Source of the DNA: a virus
Taxonomy: Duplodnaviria > Heunggongvirae > Uroviricota > Caudoviricetes
Virus record (IMG/VR): IMGVR_UViG_643348545_000015
Location: 1-37,765 of that record
Length of the DNA: 37,765 nucleotides
Reading direction: 5' to 3' (one strand)
The position numbers and the translations under genes are program-made. Each line of letters begins with the position of its first letter. The first letter of the stretch is position 1. Under the pieces are notes generated by a model, which saw nothing but the letters and a program-made list of their open reading frames with translations, searched no databases and was not told where the DNA came from. This document shows positions 7,645-37,765 of this stretch, one piece after another.

Positions 7645-8817
7645 TTACGCGCTGACCTGGCTGGAGAAATTAACCAGGTACTGATCGGTGATGCGCTGAC
7701 GCAGCATCAGGTTTTCAAGTGGCGGCACTGGCGTGTAGTCGTAGTCGATGGTGAGTTTTCCGGCTTTCAGCGTGTCTTTGTCGTTCACCGACTCATCCAG
7801 CCAGCAATCACCACCAATGAGATAGCCCTGACTGACCAGGCTGCGCATTTTGGCGCGGATACCCTCGATAATGTCGCGGGCCAGCGACGGATTCAGCGGT
7901 TTATCCACCGCCCACATGTGCGCTTCTGCCATCGTGTCCGTCAGCACCTGCGCCGTGCGGGTGTAGTTTTCGAAGGCAAAGAGCGGGTCATCACTCAGGC
8001 AGCGGGAACCCCAGAAGCGAAAACCGTCTTTGCGGATAAGGGTGGTGACGTCGTTCTGGTTCAGCAGTCCCGCATCGGTTGCCGGGTCCTGCAGATCCCA
8101 GAACACATCAGCAGAAATTCCGGTGACACCGTTAACGCCCACGTTGGACAGGCTTTTGTGCCATCCGGTCTGCTCGTCAATTTTGGCGCGCAGACCAAGC
8201 GCACGGGCGGTGGCATAAGCCGTTGCTTCGGCATTCAGCACCGTGTCCCAGCCAGTAAAGTCGGGCCAGATCAGCATTCCTTCACGCTGACTGAAGTTTT
8301 CACGGTAAGTGATTGCTTCCTGCACCGTCTTGCAACCATACGCTGACAGGTAAGCAAATCCACGCAGGCTTTGCGCCACACTCAGCAACTCAGTAGCTAC
8401 CGCCTTCGTGTCGTGACCTGGCACGCCGAGAATGCGCGGTTTAACGCCGAGCTGTGACTGGGCAGATAACAGGGCTTTCATGCCTGTTTTTTTACCTTCA
8501 GCGGTCACTGCGCCGATGATATTGGTCGTGGTTTCTTCTTCCGTTTCACCCTGCGGCACACGCACAACAACGGTCACGGGTTTTGCCTGGTCAGCGATGG
8601 CATCCAGCGAACGAGCCAGCGTGCCTGACTCACCCGCTTTACCGCTGGCAGTCAGCACATCAGTGATCAGCACGGGTTTATTAAGAGGAAACATTTTTGC
8701 ATCGGCATCATCGCCCGTGCAGACCATACCCACGATGGCGGTGCTCACCGTGGTAATGGATCGGGTGCCTTCGTTGACTTCAACAACGCGCACCCCGTGG
8801 TGGTAATCCTGAGCCAT
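7645..8817 (-). CDS. FI: Contractile tail sheath protein FI
   Basis: 390 aa [24 protein letters not shown]...; RBS AGGAGG upstream. Confidence 0.92.
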
Positions 8818-8959: not shown

Positions 8960-9526
8960 TCAGGGAGATTTATTGTTCTTATTTGCCGGAAATTTTCGAT
9001 AAATGGTAGAAACGCCTACATCAAAAATCAGTGCAATACGCTGTCTTGATTCTCCGTCCTCGAGTAAACGCCCAATCTGTGCCCACTGTTCGCTGGTCAA
9101 CTTAGGACGGCGTCCACCTACTCTGCCTTTAGCACGAGCTGCAGCCAGCCCCGCCCTGGTACGTTCAACTATCAGTTCGCGTTCCATTTCAGCCAGGGCA
9201 CCCATGACATGAAAAAAGAAACGGCCCATTGGGGTGCTGGTATCAATACTGTCAGTCAGGCTTCGGAAATTCACGCCACGCTGGCGCAGCTCTTCTATCA
9301 GCGTAACAAGATGCCGCATACTGCGCCCCAGTCTGTCCAGCTTCCAGACAACCAGCGTGTCTCCTGCCGATAGTGTCCTGAGCAGCTTTTTCAGCCCCGG
9401 TCTGTCGGACTTGGTGCCACTGATTTTATCCTCAAAAATCCGCTCACATCCCGCACAGTTCAGTGCATTGCGTTGCAAATCGGTGTTCTGGTCATTTGTT
9501 GACACGCGTACATAGCCAATAAGCAT
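8960..9526 (-). CDS. Serine-recombinase DNA invertase (Hin/Gin/Cin/Pin family)
   Basis: MLIGYVRVSTNDQNTDLQRNAL...GDTLVVWKLDRLGRSMRHLV... with C-terminal HTH; start taken at the ATG 6 nt after GGGGG (the ORF track begins 2 codons earlier at 9532). Confidence 0.9.
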   Translation of the reverse strand: MLIGYVRVSTNDQNTDLQRNALNCAGCERIFEDKISGTKSDRPGLKKLLRTLSAGDTLVVWKLDRLGRSMRHLVTLIEELRQRGVNFRSLTDSIDTSTPMGRFFFHVMGALAEMERELIVERTRAGLAAARAKGRVGGRRPKLTSEQWAQIGRLLEDGESRQRIALIFDVGVSTIYRKFPANKNNKSP

Positions 9527-9581
9527 GATCATCCCCCTGAATAAAAACCGGAGATGATGCCAGTTAGCCGTTATCTCTGCA

Positions 9582-9607
9582 TTTTCATAAACGTTGGTTT
9601 GGGAGAA
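9582..9607. repeat. Invertase crossover site, left (26 bp)
   Basis: TTTTCATAAACG-TT-GGTTTGGGAGAA; 14 bp identical, in inverted orientation, to the site at 11440-11465. Confidence 0.75.
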
Positions 9608-10090
9608 GGCTCTGCATTACCGGTTGGGGTGCCTGTTCCGTGGCCTTCAGCCACACCGCCGACAGGCTGGCTGAAATGCAACGGTGCAGCTTTTTCTGCT
9701 GAAGAATACCCGGAACTGGCAAAGGCTTATCCGACAAATAAATTGCCTGATTTACGTGGTGAGTTTATTCGTGGCTGGGATGATGAACGTGGTGTGGATA
9801 GTGGGCGAACTCTGCTTTCAGCGCAAGGAGATGCTATTCGAAACATTACTGGCGGTTTTGGTCAGTTGCGCGTAAACAGCGAAATAAATGCAATTGTTGA
9901 TGTTCAAAGTGTGAGTGGTGCTTTTTACGGAGGTACCTCAGTCCGGAATAACATCAACGTATCTATGACATACGCTAATGACCGAAAAATCCGACAAGAT
10001 GTTCACTTCTCGGCGGCAAATGTTGTTCCAACAGCAAATGAAAATCGTCCACGTAACATCGCCTTTAATTATATTGTGAGGGCCGCATGA
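9596..10090 (+). CDS. Alternative tail-fibre C-terminal cassette (silent in this orientation)
   Basis: The frame opens exactly at the crossover site (INVGLGEGSALP...) and parallels AYLGLGE in H; it would fuse to the H constant part after inversion. Confidence 0.65.
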   Translation, partial: GLGEGSALPVGVPVPWPSATPPTGWLKCNGAAFSAEEYPELAKAYPTNKLPDLRGEFIRGWDDERGVDSGRTLLSAQGDAIRNITGGFGQLRVNSEINAIVDVQSVSGAFYGGTSVRNNINVSMTYANDRKIRQDVHFSAANVVPTANENRPRNIAFNYIVRAA

Positions 10091-10692
10091 TGAATAAAGC
10101 TGTATTAAATAGCGAACTCATCACCACAAAGGCGGGAGACATTACCGTTTACAATTATGATGGTGAGACACGAGAATATATTTCCACATCAACTGAATAT
10201 CTTGCTGTGGGTGTCGGTATCCCGGCATGTTCCTGTTTAGATGCTCCTGGAACACATAAGGCTGGTTATGCAATCTGCCGTTCGGCAGATTTAAACTCAT
10301 GGGAATATGTGCCAGACCATCGCGGTGAAGTTGTCTATAACACCGAAACGGGAGAATCAAAAGAAATCACAGCTCCGGGTAATTACCCTGAAAATACAAC
10401 CACTATCGTCCCGTTAACGCCATACGATAAATGGGATGGTGAGAAATGGGTGACGGATACCGAGGCACAGCATAGCGCCGCAGTAGAAGCGGCAGAAGCA
10501 CAGCGCCAGTCGCTGATTGATGCTGCAATGGCTTCCATCAGTCTGATTCAACTGAAATTACAGGCCGGGCGGAAGCTGACGCAGGCAGAAACCACCCGAC
10601 TTAACGCCGTGCTGGATTACATTGACGCGGTGACGGCAACAGATACCAGCACTGCGCCGGATGTCATCTGGCCTGAACTGCCGGAGGCGTAG
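10087..10692 (+). CDS. Alternative tail-fibre assembly protein (G')
   Basis: 201 aa; C-terminus ...[26 protein letters not shown] parallels the G C-terminus ...[24 protein letters not shown]. Confidence 0.75.
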   Translation: MMNKAVLNSELITTKAGDITVYNYDGETREYISTSTEYLAVGVGIPACSCLDAPGTHKAGYAICRSADLNSWEYVPDHRGEVVYNTETGESKEITAPGNYPENTTTIVPLTPYDKWDGEKWVTDTEAQHSAAVEAAEAQRQSLIDAAMASISLIQLKLQAGRKLTQAETTRLNAVLDYIDAVTATDTSTAPDVIWPELPEA

Positions 10693-22710: not shown

Positions 22711-23744
22711 TGGGAAAGAGTAAGAAAAACCGCGCTGCGGCGACGAATCAGATCCAGCATAAAAACCAGACTTCAGCCGAAGCATTCAGCTTCGGTGATC
22801 CCGTTCCAGTACTTGACCGCCGCGAACTGCTGGACTATGTGGAATGTGTTCAGACAGATCGCTGGTATGAGCCTCCCGTCAGCTTTGACGGACTGGCGCG
22901 CACCTTCCGCGCTGCCGTGCATCACAGTTCCCCGATTGCAGTAAAGTGCAACATTCTGACCAGTACCTATATCCCTCATCCGCTGCTCAGCCAACAGGCT
23001 TTTTCGCGTTTTGTGCAGGACTATCTGGTATTTGGTAACGCCTACCTGGAGAAACGCACGAACCGATTCGGTGAAGTTATCGCCCTTGAGCCTGCGCTGG
23101 CAAAATACACCCGACGCGGGTTAGACCTGGATACCTACTGGTTTGTGCAATACGGTATGACAACCCAGCCGTATCAGTTCACGAAAGGCAGCATTTTTCA
23201 TCTGATGGAACCGGACATCAACCAGGAGATCTACGGCCTGCCCGGCTATCTTTCTGCCATTCCATCCGCCCTGCTCAACGAATCCGCCACGCTGTTCCGC
23301 CGTAAGTATTACATCAACGGTAGTCATGCAGGCTTCATCATGTACATGACCGACGCCGCGCAGAATCAGGAGGATGTGAACAACCTCCGCAACGCGATGA
23401 AAAGCGCCAAAGGTCCAGGCAACTTCCGCAATCTGTTTATGTACTCGCCTAACGGCAAAAAGGACGGACTTCAGATTATCCCGTTGTCAGAAGTCGCAGC
23501 GAAGGATGAATTTCTTAACATCAAGAACGTGAGTCGGGATGACATGATGGCAGCGCACCGCGTGCCGCCGCAAATGATGGGGATTATGCCGAATAATGTT
23601 GGGGGGTTTGGGGATGTCGAAAAGGCGAGTCATGTATTTGTTCGTAACGAGTTAATTCCATTACAAAAAAGGCTAATTGAATTAAATGAATGGCTTAATG
23701 ACGAAATTATTCGTTTTGACGAATATAAATTAGGCAATACTTGA
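22710..23744 (+). CDS. Q: Portal protein Q
   Basis: 344 aa from the ATG overlapping the P stop (TGATG); the ORF track begins at TTG 22707. Confidence 0.9.
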   Translation: MGKSKKNRAAATNQIQHKNQTSAEAFSFGDPVPVLDRRELLDYVECVQTDRWYEPPVSFDGLARTFRAAVHHSSPIAVKCNILTSTYIPHPLLSQQAFSRFVQDYLVFGNAYLEKRTNRFGEVIALEPALAKYTRRGLDLDTYWFVQYGMTTQPYQFTKGSIFHLMEPDINQEIYGLPGYLSAIPSALLNESATLFRRKYYINGSHAGFIMYMTDAAQNQEDVNNLRNAMKSAKGPGNFRNLFMYSPNGKKDGLQIIPLSEVAAKDEFLNIKNVSRDDMMAAHRVPPQMMGIMPNNVGGFGDVEKASHVFVRNELIPLQKRLIELNEWLNDEIIRFDEYKLGNT

Positions 23745-23753
23745 TTAAAGCCT

Positions 23754-23787
23754 GTTTAAACTGGCTGTCGGAACAGCCAGTTTAAAC
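23754..23787. terminator. Bidirectional hairpin between Q and the convergent cargo operon
   Basis: Perfect 15-bp stem GTTTAAACTGGCTGT / ACAGCCAGTTTAAAC with loop CGGA. Confidence 0.55.
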
Positions 23788-24630
23788 ACCGGCACCAATG
23801 AAATCGCCATATGAATCTTCTTCAAGGCTGATGTATTCTACCCTCCATTGATCCATCCGCCTCAATGCATACAGGGAGAAATGAGTATCAGCAACAGCTA
23901 TGCACGTATTCAATTCTATAAGTTCTGAATGCCCCAAGGTTGGATCACCATAAAACTTATAAAACAAAGCCTTTAGATCAGAACATGTTTGTTCAGCCGC
24001 TCTTCTGGCATCGGGGCCACCTTCAGTTGCATCATAAACAACATTGATAGAAAGCTCATATGGTATGCCTTCCTCAAGATCGTTAAATCTTTCTTCGCCC
24101 AAATCGAAAAAAACTCCGATCAAATGCTCTGCGTTTGTGGCGATAATATCCGCAACTTCTTTTTCGAAAATAAACTTTTTATCCTCGTCGTAAGCCCGCA
24201 AGCGCTCTTCAAACGAGTTAGGAAACGCTGGACGACCATACTTAGCAGCTAACCATTGCTTAAGAGCTTGTTTCTCTTCTGTGCTAATGGAGAATGCTGG
24301 ATCGTTTTCCTCACAACAGAAAGCTTCTTTAGGAATGATGACTTTCCTTTCATGCCGGAGCTCTACTGCATTCTTCTTCGCACTTTCTGGGTTTTCAAAA
24401 CATAGATCGAGTATTCTCGGATGCTTAGCTCTTTTCATCCTGCTTGACCCCTTTTTCAAGGGGCCAAACATCAGTTCCACGTTTTTTTCTGAATTACTCT
24501 GTAAATCACAATCATGCGTTATAACTACAACTTTATGGTTCGTTTCATCAGGCTGCAGAATTCCAAGTGAAACGGCATCATCATGTTTAAGTACATGCCC
24601 CTGACGCCATGATGTTCCTCGTACCAACAT
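23782..24630 (-). CDS. Hypothetical protein, cargo operon gene 3
   Basis: 282 aa; ATG 9 nt after the gene 2 stop; no motif I can assign by eye; AT-rich codon usage. Confidence 0.6.
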   Translation of the reverse strand: MLVRGTSWRQGHVLKHDDAVSLGILQPDETNHKVVVITHDCDLQSNSEKNVELMFGPLKKGSSRMKRAKHPRILDLCFENPESAKKNAVELRHERKVIIPKEAFCCEENDPAFSISTEEKQALKQWLAAKYGRPAFPNSFEERLRAYDEDKKFIFEKEVADIIATNAEHLIGVFFDLGEERFNDLEEGIPYELSINVVYDATEGGPDARRAAEQTCSDLKALFYKFYGDPTLGHSELIELNTCIAVADTHFSLYALRRMDQWRVEYISLEEDSYGDFIGAGV

Positions 24631-24639
24631 AAATGTGAT

Positions 24640-25302
24640 TTATTCCTCTACCGTTCCAGGAATTGAAATAGATGACTTCCAATCATCTGTCGGTTTCGCC
24701 TTGCTTGCTAAGTAATTGGCCGATTCAGCAGCAGCATTCATCGCTTTAGCTTCATCAATCAATACCTGAACTGCCCTATTCCAATCCTCACCTTCTTTTA
24801 CTACGTCCATTAATGACTTACCATTAAATGCTTTCATTTTCACCAATAGCTTCGCATCATGGAGTCCAGCTTTGGAAAAAGAGTCAGCGACATTACTAAG
24901 GTTGGTAATGAATTGCACTTTTGAAGCATCATCAGGCTGGTTCTCCCCTGACAACCATTTATAGAGAGCCTGCCGAGTTATCCCCAAATCCTTTGCCAGT
25001 TCTGACATTGATGGAGACAGCACTTCTCGAATATTAGCTAAATGTTGGGCAACATTCCTGACATCAACCTCAGGAGAAATTGCAGGCGTGTACGTTGATT
25101 CTATGGAATCAAATGCAAACTGAACCCTTGGCTGAACATACTGACGCCATTGCTTATAAGCATTTACAGGGTATGAAGCCCCCGTACCAACTAATAGTAA
25201 AGATGCGGCGACAGCAACAACACCTGATACACATGAGCTTGACTGCAAATTTGGAGAATATCGATCTACAGAGCCTATGCTTCCGGTGGGAATTGCATAC
25301 AT
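24640..25302 (-). CDS. Hypothetical protein with N-terminal hydrophobic helix and HTH motif, cargo operon gene 2
   Basis: Start MYAIPTG... 7 nt after GGAGGTGA; hydrophobic CVSGVVAVAASLLLVGTGASY; HTH-like SMSELAKDLGITRQALYKWLSGE. Confidence 0.6.
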   Translation of the reverse strand: MYAIPTGSIGSVDRYSPNLQSSSCVSGVVAVAASLLLVGTGASYPVNAYKQWRQYVQPRVQFAFDSIESTYTPAISPEVDVRNVAQHLANIREVLSPSMSELAKDLGITRQALYKWLSGENQPDDASKVQFITNLSNVADSFSKAGLHDAKLLVKMKAFNGKSLMDVVKEGEDWNRAVQVLIDEAKAMNAAAESANYLASKAKPTDDWKSSISIPGTVEE

Positions 25303-25321
25303 TTTAGTCACCTCCGTTGTT

Positions 25322-26131
25322 TCAGTGCCATTTAGTACGGGCAAAATCTGAAACCATGCCTTCAAATGCTTCTTTAACTTTACTATGCAACGAAAGAATC
25401 TGTTTTTCAATTAACTGCAAATCAGTTGACATGTTGCCTTCAACATAATGATCTGTATCAATTATTGCGTGCATACGATGCTCTGTGTTACTAAATCTCG
25501 GCAACGGCAGTAAACCATTAGGAATCATATCTGGCGGAAAACCTAGCTGACCATTCATCTTATGTATTCGTGAAACCATAAATCCATTAGGGATCAATGG
25601 CTCAACACATGTCTGATATACGGACTCTTGTATAGACTGTATTGGCGTCCATCCGAAATCAACACCATGAAGTTCCTTTACAAGATACTGCTCAATTGTT
25701 TCGCTTTTCTCAGGAAACACAGCATCCAAATATCGAAGCCCAATCCGACTTAACAGCGATGGCTTAGCAAATTCTAGAACTTTGCTCAGACCAAGTATCA
25801 ATGACGAGATGAAAGATACATGGTTATCATAATATGTTGTATGGAACGTAATGAAATCGTTGCCTAAAACAAAACCAGATCTTCTATCTGCATCAATCAT
25901 CAACCAACTTGTCACAGGCTCAAATGAATGTACCGGTGGCTCATTGGGGTTTTTTATTTCAAATTTCAACTGAGTTGTATTGGAAACCTCAAATAAAGGA
26001 AATCCCTCAACTCTTAGCGCATCTTGTATGTCTGGAACATACTTACTCATTGCAGCTATTGGAGTAAACTTTACCTGTACCAATGCATAGTAAACGGGCG
26101 CATTGGACATACGTTCGCTGTTAGTACTCAT
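25322..26131 (-). CDS. Hypothetical protein, cargo operon gene 1
   Basis: 269 aa, RBS AAGGAGG before the ATG. The N-terminal pattern NAPVYYALVQVKF is vaguely reminiscent (from memory, unverified) of the uncharacterised TIGR04255 family. Confidence 0.6.
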   Translation of the reverse strand: MSTNSERMSNAPVYYALVQVKFTPIAAMSKYVPDIQDALRVEGFPLFEVSNTTQLKFEIKNPNEPPVHSFEPVTSWLMIDADRRSGFVLGNDFITFHTTYYDNHVSFISSLILGLSKVLEFAKPSLLSRIGLRYLDAVFPEKSETIEQYLVKELHGVDFGWTPIQSIQESVYQTCVEPLIPNGFMVSRIHKMNGQLGFPPDMIPNGLLPLPRFSNTEHRMHAIIDTDHYVEGNMSTDLQLIEKQILSLHSKVKEAFEGMVSDFARTKWH

Positions 26132-26271
26132 GCCGCCCTCCTTGAAATTGTTTCATCTCATATCTCTTTATCTTACTAACTGTAGTTTACACATAGGTTG
26201 ACACTTTCTCCATCATTAAGTTCACTATGACATCAATAGCCAAAACTCTTACGTAATCGCTTCGGCGCGCG

Positions 26272-26290
26272 CTCGTATCCCCGCCACGCC
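26272..26290 (-). other. Candidate cos site (cohesive-end sequence)
   Basis: Minus strand reads GGCGTGGCGGGGATACGAG. The first 13 nt match my recollection of the P2/186 19-nt cohesive end (GGCG[A/T]GGCGGGGAAAGCA[C/T]); orientation puts Q on the correct side. Confidence 0.35.
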
Positions 26291-26494
26291 TGCCCGCTTT
26301 ATGTAGTGGTTTTCATGCACCTGCATGATCTACGCAAAAGCCCACCAGTTCTGGCGGGCCTTAGCAAAAACGATCCTCAAACGATCATGCGATCTCATGC
26401 GGCATAGACATGCACTACAGAGCTAACGCCTCGCAAGGGCTCGTTGTTCAACCTTGCTGACGCCAGAAACAAGTTCAGACGCCAGCAACGTTTC

Positions 26495-26728
26495 TTAATG
26501 CAGCCAGCTGTCGTCTTCCCACACCTTCTGCATAATTTTCATCACTTGCTTCCTTTCTTCGTCCAGTTGCAGTCCGGTCAGTTCCACACCGTTAGAGCTA
26601 CCTTTGCGGATACGAATTACCGTTTTGGGATACAGGGGGCGCAGATTACGGTAAAGCTCGGATTCAAGGGCGTCCAGGGTAGACTGGCTAATCTTCTGCT
26701 CTTTATCGATCATTATTTCAATGCGCAT
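26495..26728 (-). CDS. dinI: DinI-family protein
   Basis: 77 aa MRIEIMIDKEQKISQSTLDALESELYRNLRPLYP...WEDDSWLH, resembling E. coli DinI; RBS GAGGTGA. Confidence 0.8.
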   Translation of the reverse strand: MRIEIMIDKEQKISQSTLDALESELYRNLRPLYPKTVIRIRKGSSNGVELTGLQLDEERKQVMKIMQKVWEDDSWLH

Positions 26729-26738
26729 AAAAGTCACC

Positions 26739-26927
26739 TCAGCTGATGACATCCATTGAGCGGTTGTATTCGTGGCTTCTGATTTTTGCCATGAGTTCAT
26801 CAGTCAATTCAGAAACCCACTGCAGAGCCAGTCCCTTCTCTTCATCACTACACTCACTGGCCGCTACAAGCTTAAGAAAAAAATCAATGCGCTGGAGCTT
26901 CAAAGACTCCAAAAAATAGTCCTGCAT
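26739..26927 (-). CDS. Small hypothetical protein, first gene of the LexA-box operon
   Basis: 62-aa ORF with RBS GGAGGAAAG, 10 nt upstream of the dinI-like gene; function unknown. Confidence 0.5.
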   Translation of the reverse strand: MQDYFLESLKLQRIDFFLKLVAASECSDEEKGLALQWVSELTDELMAKIRSHEYNRSMDVIS

Positions 26928-34279: not shown

Positions 34280-35296
34280 ATGACTGTCAGAAAACAGCCA
34301 AACGGTAAATGGTTGTGCGAGTGCTATCCCAATGGACGCAATGGCAAGCGCGTGCGTAAGCAATTTGCTACGAAAGGCGAAGCCATTGCTTTTGAAAGCT
34401 TCACAATGGAAGAAGTGAACAAAAAACCATGGCTGGGGGAAAAGGAAGATCGGCGACACCTATCAGAATTAATTGAGCAGTGGTATTCCCTGTATGGTCA
34501 AACACTCGCAGACCCCAAGCGCCTCATAGCGAAACTTAGAATTATCTGTAATGGTCTAGGCGATCCCATCGCTTCAGAACTGACAGCCGGTGACTTTACG
34601 AAATACCGCGAAGCACGGTTAAAAGGTGAAGTACGAAATGAAGATGGCACGTTTATGTCGCCCGTTAAGCCCCGCACGGTAAACCTTGAACAGCGCAATC
34701 TATCATCTGTTTTTGGTACACTGAAAAAGCTGGGCCACTGGTCAGCCCCCAACCCGCTTGCTGGGCTGCCAACATTTAAAATTGCTGAGAGTGAATTGGC
34801 GTTCCTGACCCCGGAAGAAATTAAACGTCTGCTGGATGCCTGCGCCGATTCTCAAAGCTCCAGCCTGCTTTTGATTGCAAAAATATGCCTGGCCACCGGC
34901 GCACGCTGGAGCGAAGCCGAAAACCTGCAGAGTCATCAGGTATCAAAATACCGTATCACTTATACCAAGACCAAAGGCAAGAAAAACCGAACTGTGCCTA
35001 TTTCTAAGGATTTATATGAAGAACTGCCTAAGAATAGGGGGAAGTTATTCACCCCATGCAGAAAAGCCTTTGAGCGTGCAGTAAAGCGGGCTGGTATCGA
35101 TCTGCCAGAGGGTCAATGTACTCACGTTCTGCGTCATACATTCGCTAGCCATTTTATGATGAATGGTGGAAACATATTGGTTTTGCGGGATATCCTAGGA
35201 CATTCAGATATAAAAATGACCATGGTCTATGCACACTTCGCCCCAGACCATTTAGAAGATGCCGTAACTAAAAATCCTTTATTTAATTTGAGGTAA
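34280..35296 (+). CDS. int: Tyrosine integrase (P2 Int family)
   Basis: 338 aa with C-terminal catalytic region ...HVLRHTFASHFMMNGGNILVLRDILGHSDIKMTMVYAHF... Confidence 0.93.
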   Translation: MTVRKQPNGKWLCECYPNGRNGKRVRKQFATKGEAIAFESFTMEEVNKKPWLGEKEDRRHLSELIEQWYSLYGQTLADPKRLIAKLRIICNGLGDPIASELTAGDFTKYREARLKGEVRNEDGTFMSPVKPRTVNLEQRNLSSVFGTLKKLGHWSAPNPLAGLPTFKIAESELAFLTPEEIKRLLDACADSQSSSLLLIAKICLATGARWSEAENLQSHQVSKYRITYTKTKGKKNRTVPISKDLYEELPKNRGKLFTPCRKAFERAVKRAGIDLPEGQCTHVLRHTFASHFMMNGGNILVLRDILGHSDIKMTMVYAHFAPDHLEDAVTKNPLFNLR

Positions 35297-35306
35297 GTAG
35301 TAATTT

Positions 35307-35975
35307 ATGAATAGCGAACTAGAGTTACTTATAAAAATATTATTCCCTTCCCTATCTGCCATTATATCCTTATTAGGGCTTAAAACAGGGTGGACTTATA
35401 AAAAAGACAAACTATTCACATCACGTAAAAACATTAGCGAATTTTCATATCAGATGTATAAAAGCAGTGAAGATCCGACCTTCAAAAAACTGGCGGAAGA
35501 TTACGGCATTGCTGCATTAACCAAAGATAACACATTGACAAAAAAACAAAGATTAATATTACTCAACACAACAAACCCCGTTAGCGATATAGATGATTAT
35601 TCCAAATGTCAAAGTCTAATTTCCATTACCACCCATAAAGAAATATTCGCATGGAATAAAAAAAGATATAAATACAGCATATATAGAAAATTAATAAAAA
35701 TTATAACAACTCTAATTTACTTCATGGGCAGTCTCATCGTAGCACTTCCTTTCAGTTATTCTGTTGTAGTAAGTGCTAAGATGATGGAGAAGATAAACCA
35801 TCTAACTACTTGGCAATACTTTGGTTTAAGCAGCTATTTTGTGGTATCGGGAGTAGCAATATGCTTTATCTGCCTAGATAAGCTCTCCAAGATTAAGATC
35901 GCCGAGAGATTAATCGTTTCAAATAGGCGTTTAGGCGACAAATGCAGTGGCGGCACTTTGGCGGCAGAAAGTTAA
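35307..35975 (+). CDS. AT-rich hypothetical membrane protein (cargo)
   Basis: 222 aa with about three hydrophobic helices (LELLIKILFPSLSAIISLLGL; IITTLIYFMGSLIVALPFSYSVVV; YFGLSSYFVVSGVAICFICL); Lys/Asn/Ile-rich; starts 11 nt after the int stop. Confidence 0.6.
   Translation: MNSELELLIKILFPSLSAIISLLGLKTGWTYKKDKLFTSRKNISEFSYQMYKSSEDPTFKKLAEDYGIAALTKDNTLTKKQRLILLNTTNPVSDIDDYSKCQSLISITTHKEIFAWNKKRYKYSIYRKLIKIITTLIYFMGSLIVALPFSYSVVVSAKMMEKINHLTTWQYFGLSSYFVVSGVAICFICLDKLSKIKIAERLIVSNRRLGDKCSGGTLAAES

Positions 35976-36688: not shown

Positions 36689-37765
<1,077 letters not shown>

Follow-up and report, generated by a model that had tools for sequence, protein, structure and literature searches.

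Genomic setting and layout of the cassette

The window analysed here, that is the whole 37,765-nt stretch of IMG/VR virus record IMGVR_UViG_643348545_000015, carries a P2/186/Fels-2-like Escherichia coli prophage, and between its portal gene Q and a cos-like site lies a low-GC insert of 2.5 kb with three tightly spaced minus-strand genes, here called g1, g2 and g3, that form the cassette described in this report. Read in the direction of transcription, these are g1 (25322–26131, 269 aa), g2 (24640–25302, 220 aa from its ATG) and g3 (23782–24630, 282 aa), with gaps of 19 nt between g1 and g2 and 9 nt between g2 and g3. This layout had been proposed in a first-pass annotation made from the sequence alone, and it is confirmed by the open reading frame (ORF) list and by RefSeq, where all three are annotated as coding sequences. 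Strong ribosome-binding sites precede g1 (AAGGAGGG ahead of its ATG) and g2 (GGAGG, 8 nt 5′ of its ATG). The g2 frame remains open further upstream to a TTG at 25410, which would yield a 256-aa product overlapping the end of g1; we favour the 220-aa product, which RefSeq annotates and whose ATG at 25302 is preceded by the GGAGG. The insert is also visibly AT-richer than its surroundings, as first reported, with a GC content of 0.39–0.42 over 23501–26000 against 0.52–0.57 in the capsid genes and 0.53–0.56 in gene A.

Both ends of the insert are marked by sequence features. At the portal end, a perfect hairpin without strand assignment (arms 23753–23768 and 23773–23788, each of 16 nt and 100% complementary, with a 4-nt loop) lies between the convergent Q and g3, beginning 9 nt past the portal stop and overlapping the g3 stop codon; the perfect stem shared with Q had been recognised earlier, but at 15 bp instead of the 16 bp measured here. 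A terminator scan made no call at 23753–23788 because no T-run follows the hairpin, which is possibly a bidirectional terminator or a boundary of the insert. At the other end, a cos-like core (GGCGTGGCGGGGATACGAG, 26272–26290, minus strand) delimits the cargo on the right, and the same string is present in a cloned P2-hotspot fragment (Rousset et al., 2022, Table S2A). Homology to other P2-like prophages restarts at about 26253, where other genomes match query positions 2554–2601 only. In several complete E. coli genomes that are 100% identical over the region, the RefSeq gene order is portal, hypothetical protein, transcriptional regulator, TIGR04255 family protein, DinI-like protein and replication endonuclease. 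With a type III toxin–antitoxin (TA) system or a retron in mind, we also looked for an RNA component or tandem repeats in 23500–26900, and found neither an Rfam match nor any such repeat.

Variable cargo of the A–Q hotspot

The operon was found in only 18 of 5,426 complete E. coli genomes, while about 1,240 genomes of the same set match the 3′ region of the portal gene and about 1,090 match the cos-side flank. Because so few genomes carry the operon compared with those that have a related portal, we conclude that it is variable accessory cargo and not part of a core conserved in all 186/P2-like phages. What occupies the slot in its place is informative: four sampled sister prophages share the capsid–terminase–portal backbone, and three of them the DinI-like gene before gene A, while the genes directly after the portal are, respectively, one for a DUF262 protein, one for an OLD-like ATP-dependent endonuclease, a P-loop NTPase gene with one for an HsdR-N protein, and dprA. 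The cassette thus alternates at this position with genes of known or likely defence function, in keeping with the earlier suggestion that the slot is a recognised hotspot of defence cargo in P2-like prophages.

Specifically, the A–Q (gpA–gpQ) defence hotspot of P2-like phages lies next to cos (Rousset et al., 2022; PMC9122126), and the cassette likewise sits between gpA and gpQ beside cos and varies among related prophages. The first-pass annotation had equated the slot with the one that holds old and tin in P2; this is right for the hotspot as a whole but not for the side of cos, as old and tin in P2 itself lie on the gene-A side (cloned fragment, Rousset et al., 2022, Table S2A) and the cargo here lies on the Q side, both being inside the A–Q hotspot as those authors define it.

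This placement recurs among viruses. In IMG/VR, g3 occurs in 46 viral contigs, 44 of which hold the full triad while the remaining two are cut at contig ends; 31 of the g3 contigs carry a P2-like portal gene, located less than 300 nt from the g3 end in 30. Since these portal-adjacent triads span 39–100% identity (portals 59–100%), divergent versions of the cassette recur at the same phage slot. Among 50,697 deposited phage genomes there was no close copy, and a distant copy only in an Acinetobacter prophage-like contig.

Linkage of the three genes across phyla

The association of the three genes extends far beyond P2-like prophages. A GTDB scan seeded on g3 peptides alone yielded 80 loci from Gamma-, Beta- and Alphaproteobacteria, as well as from metagenome-assembled genomes (MAGs) of Chloroflexota, Nitrospirae, Verrucomicrobia, Chlamydiae, Gemmatimonadota, Omnitrophota and Holophagae. 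Linkage was counted over 86 loci, and in all 86, found with g3 patterns only, the order and orientation g1–g2–g3 are kept, with g2 and g3 usually 9–18 nt apart. Co-occurrence, which had been put forward as a check on the operon, therefore holds in 86 of 86 loci as it does in the 44 viral contigs, and the three genes almost certainly constitute one functional unit. The sole break in the tight spacing is seen in two chlamydial MAGs with an insert between g2 and g3 (L064, 5732–10001, 4.3 kb; L086, 7687–10025, 2.3 kb).

Two Arenicellales lineages encode g1 and g2 in a single ORF of 409–420 aa (L076, 8709–9971; L079 and L082, 8751–9980), in which the g1 motif IDTDH is altered to EIEH or VLVDH. These natural fusions hint that the g1 and g2 proteins may act together.

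Judged by its profile match, g1 is a member of TIGR04255, a named but uncharacterised family: it scores 180.7 bits against the NCBIfam hidden Markov model (HMM; cutoff 30; E = 4.3e-53; profile positions 1–252 of 252), and RefSeq likewise names it a TIGR04255 family protein. Plasmid relatives at 22–31% identity keep the triad in Klebsiella, Pseudomonas, Meiothermus, Gloeocapsa, Vibrio, Acinetobacter and Robbsia. At TIGR04255 loci of Mesorhizobium and Chroococcidiopsis the third gene was recognised by HMM alone, and that of Rhizobium etli was borderline (E = 0.035). The triad was intact in every plasmid TIGR04255 locus inspected, including those of Deinococcota, Cyanobacteria and Alphaproteobacteria, and because such distant loci keep all three genes, TIGR04255 appears to be defined by the triad module.

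Predicted properties of the three proteins

The g1 protein is predicted to adopt a TBP-like double β-α-β4-α fold, and its predicted sheet resembles both phosphagen-kinase/glutamine-synthetase-type and TBP-like ligand-binding sheets. Invariant Arg, Asp and His residues line the curved, TBP-like β-sheet, and we propose that g1 may be a sensor or ligand-binding subunit. Profile searches with g1 and with g3 against PDB sequences gave no meaningful match. The first-pass annotation could place none of the three products in a known defence family by eye; g1 can at least be assigned to the named family TIGR04255.

In g2, residues 98–124 match the Pfam helix-turn-helix (HTH) family HTH_3 marginally (E = 5.5e-5; 23.6 bits against a cutoff of 23), and the same match is found in 43 of 46 g2 homologues, a weak but consistent signal that identifies g2 as an XRE/Cro-type HTH protein. 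Within the recognition helix R109, Q110, Y113, K114 and W115 are invariant; the N-terminus has a conserved (G/S)TG(S/A)xY motif, the C-terminal half is helical, and the tail is conserved (…PTxDWxSxxSIPG) with W207 and P214 invariant. The HTH also weakly matches the antitoxin families dnstrm_HI1420, MqsA and spr1629, and we propose that g2 could be an autorepressor and an adaptor or antitoxin.

The earlier description of g2 as a Cro/CI-type HTH combined with a hydrophobic helix holds for the HTH and, in this window, for the helix, but the helix is not conserved: the 19-residue Kyte–Doolittle mean of the segment reaches at least 1.6 in 22 of 46 homologues and is at most 1.1 in 11, and the g1–g2 fusion proteins lack the segment altogether. 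A membrane-anchored regulator was accordingly rejected as a trait of the family. Also rejected was the assignment of the g2 C-terminus to DUF2384, the toxin-binding domain of Xre-RES/ParS-type systems, where the pattern looks similar by eye and DUF2384 is not among the 25 Pfam families most matched by the 46 homologues (E ≤ 0.1).

The g3 family is large and unannotated, with about 1,950 clusters, and is absent from Pfam. The 282-aa protein is predicted to begin with a barrel that has the SH3-like fold of MazF, Kid and CcdB; its central helix (KQWLAAKYGRPAFP) is conserved, and its C-terminal domain is of α/β type. The first-pass reading had seen no Walker A motif and no obvious nuclease, HEPN, TIR or sirtuin signature, but this fold is a toxin-like signature, invisible by eye. 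Invariant positions among 135 diverse family members are occupied by Cys, Asp, His and Arg, and the conserved positions include an H-D-C-D set together with E48, E52, R72 and R133. Sequence homology between g3 and MazF, based on a manual motif alignment, was unsupported by hhalign and was rejected, with fold similarity alone retained. We propose g3 as the effector of the triad.

A conserved operator-like repeat

A direct repeat (TGTCAACCTATGTGTAAAC, of the form TGTMAAC-N5-TGTMAAC; 26185–26203, minus strand) lies 72 nt upstream of the g1 ATG, and a block (…GTGTCAACCnnnnTGTAAACT…) is common to the upstream regions of loci whose flanks are otherwise unrelated. Allowing up to two mismatches and counting within 250 nt upstream of g1, we found the repeat in 80 of 89 loci, as opposed to 31 matches elsewhere in 2.65 Mb; the loci that lack it are mostly contig ends or have over-extended start calls. 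The window contains a single match, and 100 shuffles of it contain none. Many loci have two pairs of the repeat, and it is seen in groups as far apart as Proteobacteria, Deinococcota and Cyanobacteria. Reverse-complemented, TGTMAAC includes the −35 consensus TTGACA, and we propose that the repeat is the g2 operator and overlaps the operon promoter. Given the conserved repeat and the invariant recognition helix, g2 quite probably autoregulates the operon through these repeats. As a control element of the triad, conserved across its loci, the repeat is new.

The interval between the repeat and the g1 start differs in one further respect in Serratia sp. L9 (L007, approximately 8400–8500), where an 8-nt unit (GTGAGATA) is present in six to seven tandem copies; E. 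coli has one related copy of the unit, and the array may be a length-variable spacer.

Prior catalogues and relationship to known systems

The first-pass annotation had offered the operon as a candidate for an undescribed anti-phage system. ‘Undescribed’ is too strong, as Table S5B of Rousset et al. (2022; PMC9122126) already lists the cassette as system #59 (‘HTH_31’, 69 occurrences, ‘1 TM in protein 2’), and P2 hotspots are known to carry cargo of the general kind to which it would belong, TA-like or defence. The accompanying remark that none of its products could be assigned by eye to a known defence family is supported: in PADLOC-DB v2.0.0, g1 and g3 have no match at E ≤ 1 and g2 has only weak, HTH-level matches to RmrA and mad1. 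Nor is the cassette among the validated entries in the supplements of Vassallo (2022) or DefensePredictor. Identity with the three-gene system Rst_3HP (hp+hp+hp) was considered and rejected, as the best blastp match (E = 0.044) covers 28 residues and the family HMMs find nothing; no described system was thus matched in either comparison.

Among characterised TA systems, MazEF, PemIK, Kis–Kid and CcdAB resemble the triad in the predicted barrel fold of the g3 N-terminal domain, in a DNA-binding protein encoded just upstream and in an operator-like repeat before the operon. Antitoxins of these systems have toxin-binding tails, to which the conserved, Trp-containing tail of g2 is comparable. The differences are substantial, however: there is no sequence-level relationship to g3; MazF/PemK is a single-domain toxin of about 110 aa whereas g3, at 282 aa, also has a further conserved helix and another domain at its C-terminus; the conserved g3 residues, from H-D-C-D through E48 and E52 to R72 and R133, are not those of MazF; the MazE/PemI antitoxins are of AbrB or ribbon-helix-helix type where g2 is an XRE HTH protein; and a third gene is obligatory in the triad.

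A TBP-like g1 alongside a toxin-fold g3 also recalls RnlAB/LsoAB, since in RnlA TBP-like domains are coupled to an RNase toxin (PMC8266594). RnlA, however, joins these domains and a HEPN nuclease in one polypeptide, with RnlB as an unrelated antitoxin, whereas the triad keeps its TBP-like, HTH and MazF-fold proteins separate and has no HEPN domain. The tripartite systems TAC (toxin–antitoxin–chaperone) and CmdTAC, the latter also P2-hotspot cargo (mentioned in 10.1101/2024.10.15.618418), share with the triad three co-transcribed genes and, potentially, a third protein that modulates an antitoxin–toxin pair. In contrast to the triad, with its TBP-like TIGR04255 protein, their third protein is a SecB-type chaperone; the accessory gene comes first in the triad, and there is no homology to TAC/CmdTAC components. 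Finally, the validated P2-hotspot systems (old–tin, Rst_3HP, DUF4238, DprA–PRTase, 2TM-1TM-TIR) occupy the same gpA–gpQ slot, are of similar size and swap in the same manner, but they have been tested, whereas cassette #59 has been catalogued only. Rst_3HP is similar in having three genes without recognisable domains, yet it has no sequence similarity to the triad.

Neighbourhoods outside phages

The neighbourhood survey considered the two nearest ORFs on each side as a raw count, with no control genes and with kinship ignored. A recurrent pair, divergent and upstream of g1 in at least six loci (L004, L043, L045, L049, L055, L074), consists of a BrxR-type WYL regulator of about 296 aa and an HmaA-like SNF2/DEAD helicase with NOV_C (1,130–1,250 aa; PADLOC HmaA, E = 0). 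An NYN-domain gene follows the BrxR/helicase pair in L003/L004. Further neighbours of defence type include type I methyltransferases, Hhe, DrmD, SspA, STK_OB, PDC-S37, mad2, JetC and DUF262, and those of mobility type include integrases, transposases, resolvases, TniQ and ParA. For example, an integrase, a PIN TA pair and a methyltransferase with DUF262 lie in the vicinity of the Meiothermus locus, and a SLATT protein is encoded near that of Gloeocapsa. These neighbourhoods fit a mobile conflict system.

A proposed model and its alternatives

The computations establish the three-gene unit and its cis-element, the folds, the placement in the hotspot and turnover there; from these we infer phage protection, toxicity, binding and a trigger as follows. 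The g2 protein would bind the TGTMAAC direct repeats through its XRE HTH and repress the operon, and it would bridge its partners, with the N-terminal part contacting g1 (as the natural g1–g2 fusions suggest) and the C-terminal Trp-containing tail, in the manner of MazE/Kis-type antitoxin tails, inhibiting the MazF-fold domain of g3. Binding of a phage-derived or infection-induced ligand by g1 would then release or activate g3, whose enzymatic activity, suggested by the invariant H-D-C-D, Glu and Arg residues, would stop growth. The resemblance to MazE–MazF and Kis–Kid rests on the HTH-then-toxin-fold order, the Trp-containing tail of g2 and the barrel of g3. An antitoxin gene followed by a toxin gene is the usual TA order, and here the HTH gene lies 9 nt before g3. 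We lean slightly towards a defence function for the cassette; the full model, that is an autoregulated, horizontally mobile, tripartite TA-like module for abortive infection or phage exclusion, is the reading we prefer, tentatively, at somewhat short of an even chance. Broader still, and held with less confidence, is the possibility that the triad represents an unrecognised, multi-phylum family of three-component abortive-infection systems, comprising a TBP-like sensor, an HTH adaptor and a Cys-dependent effector with chemistry unlike that of the characterised MazF, CcdB and ToxN, with TIGR04255 as a whole defined by the module.

Several observations weigh against this interpretation. HTH dimers usually bind inverted repeats, and the element here consists of direct repeats. 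The g3 protein has no Pfam match at E ≤ 1, PemK (PF02452) included, so that its likeness to MazF is at the level of the fold alone; hhalign of g3 against a 109-sequence alignment of E. coli-type MazF, a narrow one (Neff 2.6), gave a probability below 1%; and the conserved H-D-C-D residues differ from the MazF catalytic residues. Housekeeping genes surround many loci, and the neighbour count is without control and ignores kinship. The cassette is absent from the cloned and tested systems of Rousset et al. (2022, Tables S2A and S2B), and a literature search for TIGR04255, WP accessions and sequence strings returned no paper naming the system, with Table S5B as the sole match.

Some of the same evidence might be read differently. 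The invariant, enzyme-typical polar residues of g1 and g3, the likeness of g1 to phosphagen-kinase/glutamine-synthetase-type and TBP-like ligand-binding sheets, and the many chromosomal loci among metabolic genes would suit a non-toxic accessory module, for instance a transcription unit that responds to a ligand and has a role in stress adaptation or lysogenic conversion, its g1 and g3 products being enzymes or ligand binders with a small molecule or nucleic acid as target. Of the cargo in P2 hotspots, roughly one quarter is indeed non-defence, including partition systems and toxins (PMC9122126). We consider such a module unlikely, as the sporadic, phylum-hopping, low-GC distribution is typical of conflict systems, metabolic neighbours are not conserved, the predicted fold of g3 is of MazF type and the cassette alternates with defence genes. 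Slightly less probable again is a plain addiction module that stabilises its carrier by post-segregational killing and has no anti-phage role: presence on plasmids, in prophages and beside integrases, ParA, TniQ and other TA pairs agrees with it, as do the HTH-then-toxin-fold gene order and the conserved operator, yet segregational killing would gain an integrated prophage little, the strictly conserved g1 would be superfluous for simple addiction, and the cassette returns repeatedly to a slot where validated defence systems swap.

Least probable of these alternatives, in our view, is a device that serves the P2-like phage, whether as counter-defence against host immunity, in competition with P4-like satellites, or as an exclusion system directed solely at related P2-like phages. 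In its favour are 30 viral contigs in which a temperate phage carries the triad beside the packaging site, and the known part of P2 hotspot systems in P2–P4 and P2–P2 competition (PMC9122126), but most occurrences of the triad are in chromosomes and plasmids of many phyla without P2 or P4, and few P2 elements carry any anti-defence gene (28 of 1,511).

If the cassette proves protective, as the abortive-infection model would have it, a function would be given to the TIGR04255 family of g1, to the g3 family of about 2,000 clusters absent from Pfam and to a conserved operator, and a widespread three-component system would be added to the defence and TA repertoire. With 69 occurrences (Rousset et al., 2022), it is among the commoner P2-hotspot entries that earlier screens left untouched, and the 2.5-kb E. 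coli cassette, its invariant residues, a defined DNA site and the natural g1–g2 fusions offer an experimental handle. Were it to give no protection, it would remain a mobile regulatory module, well defined and worth naming.

Other features of the window

Three further regions of the window are of note. Between the integrase gene (34280–35296) and host csiD (36788–37765) lies a 222-aa ORF (35307–35975, plus strand; GC 0.36–0.38) with no family match, its sole hit being to 1TM-TIR at an insignificant E = 0.007; this is the integrase–att slot, which a 2026 study counts as a minor P2 defence hotspot. At the opposite end, positions 1–2136 hold host smpB (1–483) and the tmRNA gene ssrA (698–1060) before the prophage, followed by two small low-GC ORFs, of which that at 1705–2136 has no match and that at 1184–1666 has a C-terminus resembling the DEDDh exonuclease/LigA C-terminal region and also PADLOC PDC-S48 (E = 2e-7). 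Lastly, a serine invertase gene (Resolvase + HTH_7; 8960–9532, minus strand) lies beside tail-collar and tail-fibre-assembly genes, and the region 8960–10692 is probably a Gin/Cin-type invertible host-range segment.

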